From assembly GCA_965218295.1 (NCBI GenBank), contig CBDCKN010000014.1, positions 64,001-128,000 on the forward strand: a stretch of DNA of 64,000 nt, written 5' to 3'. The notes beneath the pieces are model-generated. The model was not told the origin of the DNA, did not search any database, and worked only from the letters and a program-made list of their open reading frames with translations. A program made the translations under genes and the position numbers. Position 1 is the stretch's first letter. Each line of letters opens with the position of its first letter. Positions 46,758-56,664 of the stretch are shown here, piece by piece. The stretch comes from Longimicrobiales bacterium (GTDB lineage Bacteria > Gemmatimonadota > Gemmatimonadetes > Longimicrobiales > Gaopeijiaceae).

Positions 46758-47963
46758 TTGGATTTGCCCAAACACCGAGGCAGGCGCCCGCATAACGCAC
46801 TCAGCGCGGCCTTCGTGCGCAGCGCCAAGCCCGGATACTACTGCGATGGGAACGGCCTCTATCTGCGTGTGGACCGATCGGGCGCGCGCCGATGGGAGCA
46901 GCGTCTGCGGATCCAGGGTCGAAACCGCACGCTGGGGCTCGGGGGCTACCAGCTGGTATCGCTGGCCGAGGCGCGCGAGAAGGCATTCACGAACCGCAAG
47001 ATCGCGCGCTCGGGCGGTGATCCGCGTACCGAGCGGCACAAGGTCCGGGACATGCCCACGTTCGCCGAAGCGGCCGCCGGCGTTCTGGAACAGCTCCGGC
47101 CGGGCTGGCGCAGCGCCAGGCATGCGAAGGACTGGGTCTCCAGCCTGCGCGTCTACGCGTTCCCACAGCTGGGCCATCGACCGGTCGGCGAGATAACGAC
47201 AGCCGACATCCTGGCGGTGCTGACACCGATCTGGCACGCCAAGCAGGTGACTGCCAGACGGGTGCGCCAGCGCATTGGGGCGGTGATGAAGTGGGCGGTG
47301 GCGATGGGGCTTCGGCCGGACAACCCCGCCAGCGATGTGCTCGGTCAAGCGCTTGGCCGACAGCGCGTCGTAGTCCGGCACATGCGCGCGTTGCCTCACT
47401 CGAAGGTCGCGGGCGCGATGGAGACGGTGCGGAAGTCGCACGCTTACCCGGCCACGAAACTCGCCTTCGAGTTCCTGGTGTTGACGGCGGCCCGCTCGGG
47501 AGAGGTTCGCTCGGCGCACTGGGATGAAATCGACCTGGAGGCTCGAGAGTGGACGGTTCCCGCCGAACGCACGAAGGCCCATCGCCCCCACAGGGTGCCG
47601 CTGTCCGGGCGCGCCGTGGAGATACTGAGCGAGGCGCGGACGCTCGGGGGCGGCAGCGGTCTCGTTTTCCCGTCGCCGGAGGGCCGCGCATCTGCCCACA
47701 GCAGACTCTCCACGCTGCTTCGAGACCTGGGTATCGCGGCCGTGCCGCACGGCTTCCGGTCGAGCTTCAGGGACTGGTGCGGCGAGTGTTCCAACGCACC
47801 GCGTGAAGTCGCCGAGGCCGCGTTGGCGCATGCGGTTCGTAACAAGGTGGAAGCTGCCTATGCGCGTTCGGACCTGTTCGAGCGCAGGCGCGTCCTGATG
47901 GACAATTGGGCTGCGTATCTGGCGGGCGAGCGTCTGGACCCGGAGGCCGAACCGGCTCGCTGA
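46758..47963 (+). CDS. P4-like tyrosine integrase
   Basis: Arm domain DGNGLYLRV...LGGYQLVSLAEAR; LTAARSGE, HGFRSSFRDW, LAH and AYAR. Confidence 0.95.
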   Translation: MDLPKHRGRRPHNALSAAFVRSAKPGYYCDGNGLYLRVDRSGARRWEQRLRIQGRNRTLGLGGYQLVSLAEAREKAFTNRKIARSGGDPRTERHKVRDMPTFAEAAAGVLEQLRPGWRSARHAKDWVSSLRVYAFPQLGHRPVGEITTADILAVLTPIWHAKQVTARRVRQRIGAVMKWAVAMGLRPDNPASDVLGQALGRQRVVVRHMRALPHSKVAGAMETVRKSHAYPATKLAFEFLVLTAARSGEVRSAHWDEIDLEAREWTVPAERTKAHRPHRVPLSGRAVEILSEARTLGGGSGLVFPSPEGRASAHSRLSTLLRDLGIAAVPHGFRSSFRDWCGECSNAPREVAEAALAHAVRNKVEAAYARSDLFERRRVLMDNWAAYLAGERLDPEAEPAR

Positions 47964-48056
47964 TCCGCCGCGCTCGCAGTGTCGGCGGACGAGTCCGTCA
48001 GGCGCTGAAGAGCAGGGGCGCGAAGGCTGGCTCACGACCCGTATGTGGACGCCCCC

Positions 48057-48333
48057 CGGGTTGGCAAGCCTGACTTCGAACCGAGGTTGGTGGCAATCAG
48101 GTCCGGTACTGTCGTATGTCCGGCCTCTTGATGCAGCCCTCGTTGGCTGCGGGCCCGTATGGTGTTCGTGAGATCGGATCCAAATCGTTAGGTCGGGCTC
48201 GGTGGCCCTTCGGGTCATCCTGGTGTTTCCGATCCCGTCTTCCAGACCGTTTGCCCTTACTCGTTCTTGCGTCCTGCTGCCCACATCTCCCAGCAGCTTT
48301 CTCTGTTTGCGCTTCTCTCCTTTCATTGGCCGG
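48057..48333 (-). ncRNA. putative bridge/seek RNA in the non-coding region downstream of the recombinase
   Basis: Target-matching segments at 48186-48191 and 48211-48218; donor-matching segment at 48113-48119; each loop contains an internal hairpin. Confidence 0.8.
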
Positions 48334-49356
48334 TCAGGCGGCAGCGCGAACCCGATGGATCTCCTTCTTCGTGGTCAGCGCCCAGACCATCCGCGCCGTC
48401 CTGTTGGCGAGCGCCACCGCGACCAGCATCTTCGGCTTGCGTGCCAGCATCCTGGCCAGCCACGGATCCGTGATCTCGCCGCGCCGGATCGCGTTTTGGA
48501 CGACCGCCATGGCTCCCGTGATCAAGAGCCGCCGGAGATCGCGCTGGCCCATCTTCGATATCCTGCCCAGCCTCGGCTTGCCGCCGGTGGTGTGCTGCCG
48601 CGGCACAAGGCCGAGCCAGGCCGAGAAGTCGCGCCCGCGCCGGAAGCTCTCCATCGGCGGTGCGAAGGCCTGCAGTGCCATCGCGGTGATCGGTCCGATT
48701 CCGGGGATTGTCATCAGCCGCGCCGTCTCTTCGCGCTCCCGTGCGCTCGCCCGGAGCTTCCTGTCGAATCCATCGATCTTCTCATCGAGCTCGTCGATCC
48801 GCCCGAGCAGCAGCCATCCCAGCTCGACGACCGCCTCCGGCAGGCCGACGTCCCCGTCTTCCAGCACCCAGGCCAGTTGCCCGATCCGGGCCCTGCCCTG
48901 CGGAGCAACAACTCCGAACTCGGCGAGGTGACCCCGAAGGGCATTGATCGTCTGTGTGCGCTGGCGCACCAGCAGGTCACGCGTGCGAAAGAGCATCCCC
49001 TGACCCTGCTGCGCTTCGGTCTTGACCGCCACGAAGCGCATGGTCGGACGCTGTGCGGCTTCCGAGATCGCCTCCGCGTCCGCCGCGTCGTTCTTCTGCC
49101 TCTTGACGAAGGGCTTCACGTAGATCGGGGGAACCAGCTTCACCTCGTGACCGAGGGCCACGATCTCCCGGCCCCAGTAGTGGGCGCCGGCGCATGCCTC
49201 CATCGCCACCGTGCAAGGCGGCTGCGCGGCGAGAAAACTCAGCAGCTTCCCGCGGCTCAGCTTCCTGCGGTACGCTACCGACCCGTTCGCCTTCGCCCCG
49301 TGTACCTGAAAGCTGCGCTTTGCCAGATCGATCCCGATGATGCTAACCTCCTCCAT
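48334..49356 (-). CDS. IS110 family recombinase/transposase
   Basis: GIDLAK, MEAC, KNDAADAEAI, IPGIGPITA and WLGLVP.Q.TTGG. Confidence 0.97.
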   Translation of the reverse strand: MEEVSIIGIDLAKRSFQVHGAKANGSVAYRRKLSRGKLLSFLAAQPPCTVAMEACAGAHYWGREIVALGHEVKLVPPIYVKPFVKRQKNDAADAEAISEAAQRPTMRFVAVKTEAQQGQGMLFRTRDLLVRQRTQTINALRGHLAEFGVVAPQGRARIGQLAWVLEDGDVGLPEAVVELGWLLLGRIDELDEKIDGFDRKLRASAREREETARLMTIPGIGPITAMALQAFAPPMESFRRGRDFSAWLGLVPRQHTTGGKPRLGRISKMGQRDLRRLLITGAMAVVQNAIRRGEITDPWLARMLARKPKMLVAVALANRTARMVWALTTKKEIHRVRAAA

Positions 49357-49553
49357 TGGATGCCTCCTCCCTCAGATGGTCGATATCGCTCAGTACCATC
49401 TTGGCACATTGCGATGCCGCCGGGAGGGGGCGTCCACCCCATCGTTAGCAGTCATGAGCCAGCCTACCCCTTGGGGCCACGCTTCGCGGGTCCCCGGCAG
49501 GGGCTGGCGAGGGGCTGGGCCCCCTCTGACCCCCCCAACGGCAACAGCGCATC

Positions 49554-49670
49554 ATGAGCGCTGGACGCGCCGTGTGGGTGAAGATCCGCGCCAGCGAGGC
49601 GGAGCCTGCCGAGTGGCACGCTAAGGCGCGCTCCGCAGGCTTGACGCTGTCGGATCTGGTGCTGCGGATT
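49554..49670 (+). pseudogene. MobC/ribbon-helix-helix relaxosome protein, truncated
   Basis: VWVKIRASEAE.AEWHAKARSAGLTLSDLV; no relaxase follows. Confidence 0.65.
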
Positions 49671-49803
49671 CAGCCTTTTGACACAGTACAAATAGGGCAT
49701 GGAAACAATGCAATTATGCTATTGACGAGACGGTTTCAGCGAGCCCAAGATTTCCGTTGAAATCGCTGCTGGACTCCCATCTTTCGGACATTCAGGAATC
49801 CGA

Positions 49804-50142
49804 ATGAGCTGTCACCGAACCATCATCCGGCTGTCAGCGGTGCTAGCGGTTGTGGCCTTGGCCACGGGGTACGGGGACGGTGACAGCCCTGCCGCGCCTC
49901 CAACGCCAGAGCCCGCCCGTCCGACGAGTGCGGGTAGCGGACAGGGAACGGCAGACCTGGACCGTGCGGCGCTGGTCGCGCTCTACAACGCGACGAACGG
50001 GCCGAACTGGACCAACAATGACAACTGGCTGGCCGACGTGCCGCTGGAGGAGTGGTACGGGGTGGTGACGGGCAGTGACGGGCGTGTTACACGACTCTCT
50101 CTGTGGGAGAACAATCTCACCGGCCCGATCCTCCCGAACTAA
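49804..50142 (+). pseudogene. truncated secreted LRR-type protein (N-cap only)
   Basis: Signal-like N-terminus; DRAALVALYNATNGPNWTNNDNWL...WYGV...GRVTRLSLWENNLTGPI, then stop. Confidence 0.75.
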
Positions 50143-50319
50143 CCACATATTATGTAACCGACATTATCACAATATGTTAGAACATGTGGCCGCAAATGAT
50201 GTATCACTCAGGATATACATTTCTGAGCGAGATTCCATGGGACCCAACCGGATGTCGGTGGATCAGATTCTGGTGATTGCCGCAGGCCAAATGCTACTGC
50301 CTGAGATCAGGATCGGCAG

Positions 50320-55433: not shown

Positions 55434-56664
55434 TGTACAGAGATGGTAATGACCTGACAGTTGGCCCTCGCCGGAGCTGTGTCTAGGCTGCCTTCGTCTT
55501 AGCCTCCTCCTTCCTGGCCTTTGCGGCCTTCCTGGCGTCGGTGAGACCGGCCTTGAAGACCTGATAGGGCGTGCGGCCCTCCATGGCTCGACCGCGGTGC
55601 GGCCGCTTCCGGTTGTAGGTCTCCAGATACGCCTCGAGGTCCTGCTGCATCTCCTCGACGGTCTCGTACCAGGTGGTGCGGCCCTTCACCCTCAAGTGCT
55701 CGTCGAGGAGCGTGCGGTGGAAGCGCTCGATGAAGCCGTTGGACTGGGGCCTGCCCACCTTCGTCGTGCGGTGCTCGATGTCCTCGAGCTGAAGGAACAG
55801 CTCATATGGGTGACGGTCCGGACGGCCGCAGAACTCGCGGCCGTTGTCGCTGAGCACGGTCTTCACCCGGACCCGGTGCTCATCGAAGAACGGCAACACG
55901 TCGTTATTCATCACCTGCACCGCCGTGAGCGGGAGCTTGCTCGTGTAGAGCCGGCCCCAGGCGTAGCGGCTGAAGCAATCGAGCACGGTCTGCAGGTACA
56001 CCTTGCCGACCCCCTTCAGCGTTCCGACGAAGAACGTGTCCACGGCGACGAGGTCGCCCGGGTAATGGACTTCGATGTGGCGCTCCCGGAACTCGGGACT
56101 GAAGCGCTCCAGCAGCTCGATCTGCTCGTCGGTCAGCTTCAGCTTCCGTTCCCTGGCCGTCTCTTCGAGCCTGAGCAGCCGTTCGTGCTTCGTGGTGAGG
56201 CCATGCCGGCTCCACACGCCCCGTACGCCTCCTGAGCTCACCTGGATCCCTCCGAGCAGCAACTCGTCCGCGACCCGCTGAGCTCCGTGCGTCGGAGCCT
56301 CCAAGGCGTGGGCCAAGACCGCCTGCTCAATCTCTTCACTCACCCGGTTCGGGTGCGGTCCCTTCGGCCCCGGAAGCTGGTCGATCAGCCCCTCGGCCCC
56401 GTAAAGCTGGAAGTTCCTCCTGATCTCGTAGAACTGCTGCCGGCTGTAGCCCACGATCTTGCACGCCTTGCTCACGTTGCCGAGCTCCTGGGCCAACTGT
56501 AGCAGGCTCAGCTTGCGGCGCGCTATCTTCTCCCCCTGGACGGTGGTCATCTTCTCTCCCGTGCTAAGTGAGTGACTTCGACATCTCTCAATTAGCTCCG
56601 GCGAGGGCGGCTGGCCACCGTCCTCTCTCGTGGTCAACTGTCAGGTGAATACCGTCTCAGCACA
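55434..56664 (-). mobile_element. IS481-family element, copy 2
   Basis: Same 1231-bp length and identical transposase sequence to copy 1, inverted; no clean TSD (GCGGCA vs CACGGC). Confidence 0.95.

Follow-up and report, generated by a model that had tools for sequence, protein, structure and literature searches.

An IS1111-type insertion sequence with a predicted guide RNA matching a hairpin near a likely transfer origin, and relatives probably redirected within the same mobilisable family

The closest described systems are the seekRNA-guided IS1111 elements ISEc11, ISKpn4, ISPst6 and ISPa11. In the available part of PMC11187229, the IS1111 group is recognised by sub-terminal inverted repeats of 11-13 bp, set in by 7 nt at the left end and by 3 nt at the right end, and the targets given for the group are attC, REP, Tn21 repeats and linear sites. 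The bridge recombinases IS621 and ISCro4 belong to the IS110 group; they carry the target and donor guides in one RNA, which is located in the left end, and they use a dinucleotide core (PMC11208160, in part). Other RNA-guided elements parasitise a conserved site of another mobile element, namely the terminal repeats of Tn21 for IS4321/IS5075 and the catalytic codons of IS3 for ISEc21, as far as the accessible excerpts of these sources go. It is known that IS110/IS1111 elements use other mobile elements (attC, Tn21 repeats, IS3 codons) and hairpins as targets and are naturally redirected, but the natural targets of their guides, and the reasons for them, are still poorly charted.

The element described here, IS-A, resembles the seekRNA elements in its repeat offsets of 7 and 3 nt, its 3' non-coding region and its 340-aa DEDD enzyme, and also in the position of the top-strand guide before the bottom-strand guide and in natural redirection between close relatives (PMC11187229, in part). 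Unlike them, as they appear in the same excerpt, it has a target beside a predicted nic, and its group has in addition a covarying donor-matching segment. The combination of target and donor guides in one RNA and the dinucleotide core are shared with IS621 and ISCro4 (PDB 8wt6 and 9t56), whereas the position of the RNA is not, and the sequence match to these two enzymes is confined to the C-terminal domain (E values of 8e-12 and 3e-8). IS4321/IS5075 strike transposon ends and ISEc21 a transposase gene, in contrast to the conjugative origin considered here. The explanation that we favour, and regard as fairly probable, is that IS-A is an intact IS1111 element with a predicted guide RNA that fits a hairpin lying 14 nt from the likely nick of a ColE1-type transfer origin, and that it belongs to a local group whose guides were likely rewritten to three sites on one abundant mobilisable family that carries an integrase.

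IS-A is located in the window, i.e., the whole 64,000-nt stretch of DNA that was analysed, and comprises the following features.

48042 to 49444, minus strand: IS-A, IS1111-type insertion sequence of 1403 bp, delimited by its ends and the empty-site joint
48334 to 49356, minus strand: DEDD transposase/recombinase, 340 aa, intact frame (Pfam PF01548 and PF02371; NCBIfam NF033542, 7.7e-97)
48045 to 48056: sub-terminal inverted repeat of 12 bp on the right side, set in by 3 nt from the IS-A end
49426 to 49437: left sub-terminal inverted repeat, 7 nt from the IS-A end

Group membership was judged from a DEDD transposase of 330-350 aa, sub-terminal repeats, a long downstream non-coding region and the guide order. 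Both PF01548 and PF02371 scored above the Pfam cut-off, the sub-terminal repeats matched perfectly over 12 bp at offsets of 7 nt (left) and 3 nt (right), and the transposase gene was followed at its 3' side by a non-coding region of 292 nt (48333-48042). The CG at 49443-49444 is the only copy of the core dinucleotide that belongs to IS-A. The retention of non-CG target bases at the right junctions of the homologous loci L131 (GG), L099 and L012-L014 (CA) indicated that the target is not duplicated and that the left-end dinucleotide is owned by the IS. By its transposase, repeats, non-coding region, guide order and lack of duplication, IS-A is a member of the IS1111 group of IS110. A promoter-like sequence, TTGCCA-18 nt-TACGAT, was predicted across the joined ends of IS-A, and no circle joint was present among those listed in four runs. 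The nearest named relatives of the transposase (86-91%) came from Gemmatimonadota/Longimicrobiales assemblies, with one partial match in an alphaproteobacterial assembly.

The target site flanks the element as follows.

48024 to 48038, plus strand: left hairpin arm of the target site; the 5' guide matches the target half at 48034-48041
48040 to 48041, plus strand: CG core of the target, with the insertion point after 48041, where the joint skips 1403 nt
49451 to 49465, plus strand: right arm of the hairpin, holding the predicted nic motif on the minus strand

As the first-pass annotation had described, the excision of IS-A brings the two arms together as a 15-bp inverted repeat, which has a single mismatch at 48035 and encloses a loop of 9 nt. 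An uninterrupted site was found in the same genome (G000:C3:555643-555480; 95.8% identity over 165 nt, where one extra base in the query produces an alignment gap), and a joint skipping exactly 1403 nt was seen in all four public runs, which came from four studies. The further argument that the guide matches the perfect form of the hairpin failed, as the mismatch is a guide U opposite a target G, i.e., a wobble. Moreover, the free sites in G000 and in a second genome, G301, carry the same C allele, and the U-G position is therefore uninformative on a perfect hairpin; the T allele was shown by one contig in X1. The distal base of the 3' guide of IS-A also mismatches the target, so a better target may exist elsewhere. 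A second copy of IS-A, on contig C13, is identical to the window over 1659 bases that extend into the flanks, and the whole stretch compared has 93.5% identity over 2930 nt. This copy was rejected as a second independent insertion because of the shared identical flanks; the two copies represent one insertion that was later copied by recombination, or an assembly join.

The predicted guide RNA is encoded in the non-coding region of IS-A.

48170 to 48236, minus strand: predicted target-binding loop of the seek/bridge RNA, with an outer stem, an inner hairpin and two unpaired guides (consensus fold)
48211 to 48218, minus strand: 5' guide, matching the integrase-side flank and core at 7 of 8 nt plus one U-G wobble
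48186 to 48192, minus strand: 3' guide, matching the mobC-side flank at 6 of 7 nt
48113 to 48164, minus strand: predicted donor-binding region, in which 48120-48113 matches the IS-A right end and core

The guide segments reported at first reading were recovered on the minus strand, with ATGACCCG at 48218-48211, (C)CTAACG at 48192-48186 and a GGGC/GCCC hairpin at 48208-48195 between them. The consensus fold of 25 homolog loops consisted of an outer stem and an inner hairpin, with compensatory changes in 7 of the 15 pairs. Both guide tracts were unpaired in it, contrary to the possibility raised earlier that the matching segments are base-paired; this call belongs to the consensus fold and not to the single-sequence fold, in which 2 nt of each guide were weakly paired (unpaired probability 0.36-0.45). 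The whole non-coding region of IS-A folded no better than shuffled sequences (z -1.19), and a search of Rfam returned no family near threshold.

The parsing of 87 loci gave 47 guide loops. Of the five positions that lie outside the core, the 3' guides agreed with the left flanks at 4.48, compared with 1.40 in shuffles (27 distinct guides), and the 5' guides shared a run of 5.1 nt with the right flanks, compared with 3.1 nt (21 distinct guides). None of 10,000 shuffles reached the observed value for either guide, in a test in which the relatives are not independent and two mis-parsed flanks were left in. The alignment of flanks across homologs, suggested by the first-pass annotation, thus showed that the guides covary with the insertion sites above shuffles. 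In the IS-A RNA, the match to the top strand lies 5' of the match to the bottom strand, both in loops, which is the IS1111 order according to the available part of PMC11187229. Judged from the sequences, the guides of IS-A are real.

In the donor segment, the four variable nucleotides agreed with the right end of the own IS in 29 of 30 homolog loci (shuffle mean 8.5), a count made without the 20 tandem rows of L010, and 48164-48156 resembled the complement of the IS-A left end by eye. In our analysis, this donor-matching segment fits the donor loop of the bridge-RNA model (PMC11208160, in part). The register of the 5' guide relative to the core shifted by up to 2 nt between close relatives and by 1 nt between copies of one element (L001, L002, L024, L084, L095, L099 and the window), which suggests a flexible spacing between the two target halves. 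At L010:4169-6957, one IS1111 copy was followed by about 20 near-identical tandem units of 131 bp, each consisting of the donor-loop half and the IS right end; they could have arisen by repeated one-ended recombination or as an assembly artefact.

The element interrupted by IS-A contains the following features.

46758 to 47963, plus strand: P4-like tyrosine integrase of the host element, 401 aa (Pfam Phage_int_M 3.6e-28, Arm-DNA-bind_3 and Phage_integrase)
49473 to 49514, plus strand: origin inverted repeat, which varies between family members, and conserved G-rich box
49554 to 49700, plus strand: truncated mobC/mbeC-like gene, 49 codons, homology lost near 49662, no relaxase after it

The start of the mobC-like gene at 49554 lies 89 nt past the hairpin, in agreement with the distance of about 90 bp noted earlier, and its frame matched the Pfam NikA-like model with an E value of 1.2e-4, below the cut-off. 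In the right hairpin arm, the minus-strand sequence is CTGGCTCA, which is identical at 7 of 8 positions to the ColE1 nic octamer CTGGCTTA (PMC5703827, in part). The exact ColE1 octamer was present in several family members, and the orientation of the nic-like motif to mobC is the same as in ColE1 with mbeC. Each origin site comprised a fixed core, a variable palindrome next to it and a G-rich box. Such nic-like sites numbered 19 in G000, 25 in a third genome, G248, and 22 in G301, with none in the controls. A nic-like core was located 97-141 nt upstream of all 12 mobC-like starts found in G000, and a similar core occurred in the four plasmids with related relaxases that were examined; one of these has the exact core, and in the other three it was recognised by eye. 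Furthermore, among nine left types with several members, five showed shuffling of the left and right origin halves at the nic motif, which is what a nick site would produce. With the cut position that we assume inside a ColE1-type octamer, nic falls between 49458 and 49459, and we infer a ColE1-type origin cut at this position. The insertion of IS-A is 14 nt 3' of the predicted nic on the nicked strand, and nic, palindrome and mobC stay joined. Since mobC is truncated in the window and no relaxase follows, this copy could move only in trans.

An intact copy of the family (G000:C9) contains the integrase, the hairpin, mobC (MobC 2.3e-11, NikA-like 1.3e-14), a relaxase with an overlapping frame and an mbeD-type start. 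The best NCBIfam model for the intact relaxase was ColE1 MbeA (4e-25), at 88.9 bits against a curated cut-off of 500. Inspection by eye of the relaxase in L100 showed three histidines instead of an H-E-N motif III, which we take to be the mark of the MOB-HEN relaxase subfamily. In the intact relatives, MobC, Relaxase and MbeD were above the Pfam cut-offs (MbeD being the small gene in L127), and the frame at the mbeB position had no Pfam match. The family is like the ColE1 MOBP5 region (oriT, mbeC, mbeA, mbeB, mbeD) in its apparent gene order, overlapping frames and orientation of the nic-like octamer, but it is joined to a chromosomal P4-like integrase, has a 3-His relaxase and 19-25 origin copies per genome, and carries an added hairpin on the leading side of nic.

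It was also considered that the repeat upstream of mobC is a promoter/operator or a non-autonomous repeat. The origin function is a predicted one, many copies are without mobC or relaxase, and typing with MOB-suite recognised none of the four related plasmids as mobilisable; set against the similarity and orientation of the octamer, the variable inverted repeat beside a fixed core, the apparent mbeC-A-B-D gene order and the shuffling at the core, these points leave this explanation highly improbable. The placement of the insertion at a transfer origin, as proposed in the first-pass annotation, thus stood in that the site appears to overlap a ColE1-type origin of an integrase-mobC-relaxase family, but not in the dedication of the IS-A guide pair to origins.

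Several features of the origins are recorded here as separate observations. The hairpin holds a nic-like motif twice, once in each orientation (e.g., 48024-48041 and 49445-49465 in the window), and its interior is highly variable except for a loop TA (96% and 84% of 49 sites). Many copies of the family are reduced to the origin alone, and fragments of the integrase 3' end lie near some origins, hinting at possible nesting.

The conservation of the target was analysed in the free origins, 17 of them in G000 and 27 parsed from 30 fetched of the 59 sites listed elsewhere. The hairpin was kept as a structure in 13 of 17 and 12 of 27, respectively, with a highly variable interior. The expected ATGACC-CG-TTAG in mobC-proximal hairpins was thus borne out for the structure but not for the sequence, as the 12-nt target was exact in only 1 of the 17 free origins of G000 and in none of the 27 elsewhere; four more origins in G000 and five more elsewhere were within two mismatches. 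The sole free AYGACCCGTTAG in G000 and the sole one in G301 both lie inside this hairpin, and the 60-nt windows on either side of the 19 origins make up 0.064% of G000. A search of 300 further genomes from the order did not find the exact IS-A guide pattern, and in a metagenome collection a relaxed version of it had three chance matches, none of them an IS. Two short contigs from other studies (X11 record 4 and X5 record 26) join an IS right end at this hairpin position, one of them with a different upstream sequence; with less than 31 nt on one side and no link to guides, they are only suggestive of further hairpin insertions.

A sister element, IS-A', was present in G301 in three identical copies, with a transposase of 92% amino acid identity to that of IS-A. 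The target loops of the two differ at 5 of 17 guide positions and are otherwise identical, and the guides of IS-A' match exactly the start codon region of an mbeD-like gene. One copy is inserted at the mbeD start inside an integrase-mobC-relaxase element, and the other two occupy degenerate sites in loci where no mob or integrase gene was seen. In G000 the hairpin is occupied and four mbeD starts are free, where composition would predict 0.01, and in G301 the mbeD start is occupied, none is free, and the hairpin site is free; the pattern of free and occupied sites is reciprocal between the two genomes. The other relatives of IS-A at 86-88% had unrelated guides and sites. One relative of 86% identity (L024:530-545 and 1850-1870) was located by eye inside an apparent transposase gene, which we take to be of the IS21 type and which would be a further target within a mobile element.

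These data bear on an explanation in which the guides of IS-A drifted from a sister directed to mbeD, or are aimed at some other site, so that the hairpin is a near match in a repeat-rich mobile region and only the relative IS-B, described below, is directed to the origin. Such drift would agree with the single insertion event of IS-A and with the remaining distal mismatch and wobble. Since ATGACC and CGTTAG occur both at the mbeD start and in the hairpin, a small guide change leads from one to the other, and copies of a single element differ by 1-2 nt in the spacing of their guide halves. In three of four runs, the guide-covering contig carries the letters of the sister and not those of IS-A. 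However, with the guide changes the CG falls at the core in register with the hairpin and the guides no longer fit mbeD, the four mbeD starts of G000 were left free, and the X11 and X5 contigs, although only suggestive, show the IS right end at the hairpin position. Drift without redirection is on balance rather unlikely, and rewriting of the guides within the group is preferred.

IS-B, a relative of IS-A with 61% amino acid identity, was found via similarity to the IS and not via searches of origins. Its guides match the core of the origin, which is conserved, and the beginning of the palindrome. All three copies, one in G248 and two in G301, are inserted 10 nt 5' of the predicted nic with three different flanks; two of the three are broken. 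Two copies precede a truncated mobC start (by eye), and the third has a 3' guide match of 5 of 7 with no mobC seen beside it. A perfect free target of IS-B is present in G248, and an IS end joined at the IS-B position also appeared in run X7. The three genomes from the genus hold seven independent insertions whose RNA can be read, a count that leaves out an eighth copy, L114, whose RNA is lost. Five of the seven were located in the mobilisation region, and four were no more than 14 nt from nic. A quick-method tree, which sets IS-B outside the IS-A clade but does not give its exact place, showed IS-B on a long branch. The inner hairpin of the RNA is identical in IS-B and IS-A, so an exchange of RNA modules is possible and the two cases may not be independent.

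Searches with patterns of IS-end/origin junctions gave 13 matches in 22 genomes, of which nine were inspected: three were the IS-B copies, four were not IS ends, and two were IS ends located elsewhere than at this origin. A viral junction match was rejected, as it was not an IS. No exact junction of the IS-B type was found in 400 genomes of the phylum, where a single match with one mismatch occurred, and the IS-B guide pattern was absent from 24 further genomes. At the origin G000:C3:551468, the nine bases after the IS-B insertion point are the first nine of the IS right end, and a decayed mobC and relaxase adjoin; this may be the scar of a deleted IS-B-type copy.

The target of IS-A could also be the stem-loop itself or a signal at the 3' end of the integrase gene, as for REP- and attC-targeting IS1111 elements, with the closeness of nic being incidental. 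The hairpin begins 2-60 nt past the integrase stop in several copies, and inspection of the four plasmids by eye did not show it upstream of nic. The family commonly uses hairpins as targets (PMC11187229, in part), and a target stem-loop adds specificity for ISPpu10 according to the available part of bioRxiv 10.64898/2026.03.19.712850. No terminator-like site was called at the empty locus, however, the right arm itself contains the nic motif, similar hairpins also occur in origins without an integrase directly upstream, and IS-B and IS-A' insert outside the hairpin loop. This alternative was considered unlikely.

For IS-A, the proposal that the element is programmed for oriT is partly supported: it is known from one insertion, and its target is exact in just the single free origin mentioned. 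It is better supported for the group, in which all copies of IS-B lie beside nic. On the published model, IS-A would be excised to a circle whose junction promoter would drive expression of both transposase and RNA; one guide would then base-pair with each strand, to the left and right of the core, leading to insertion without duplication (PMC11187229 and PMC11208160, each in part). As IS-A spares the linkage of nic, inverted repeat and mobC, it would ride on the leading end of the transferred strand and enter the recipient first. IS-B parts nic from the inverted repeat and would block transfer. IS-A' would remove mbeD, a putative entry-exclusion gene; MbeD is described as such in the available part of PMC5935869. 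A family with about 20 copies per genome and movement from cell to cell would be a rewarding target, and one that is selected and not just convenient. A broader idea is that the IS1111 elements of this Gemmatimonadota genus specialise in parasitising one family of ColE1-type origins and can be re-programmed among its sites, acting by leading-side docking with first entry into each recipient, by separation of nic from its binding repeat, which immobilises the element, and by knockout of mbeD; this idea, with the variable hairpin interior as an escape in an arms race, is tentative and somewhat doubtful.

No title or abstract opening in the literature searched, a scope that ended short of subscription journals and bioRxiv supplements, describes an IS110/IS1111 element aimed at a transfer origin. 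The five searchable supplements of PMC11187229 contained no match for oriT, mob or relaxase, and in the available part of 10.64898/2026.08.14.744561 oriT appears only in the plasmid-capture methods. Transfer origins would thus be a new target class for a known RNA-guided system, as suggested by few events. Three functional sites of one mobilisable family appear to be addressed by as many guide pairs, two of which belong to enzymes with 92% identity. The free and occupied sites in the same genomes provide a ready test of natural reprogramming and of tolerance to wobble and spacing, and the same system can show whether an insertion adjacent to nic promotes or prevents horizontal spread. The analysis further brings to light an abundant family of elements combining an integrase with ColE1-type mob genes in an uncultured lineage.

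Two further observations concern the window. Past the truncation of mobC, a stretch of lower GC content at 49700-50150 contains a 112-aa lipoprotein-like fragment with a weak leucine-rich-repeat match and is likely decayed cargo. At 55483-56637, an intact 384-aa transposase with an integrase core (rve), presumably IS481-like, was found, and similar frames occur elsewhere in the genome.
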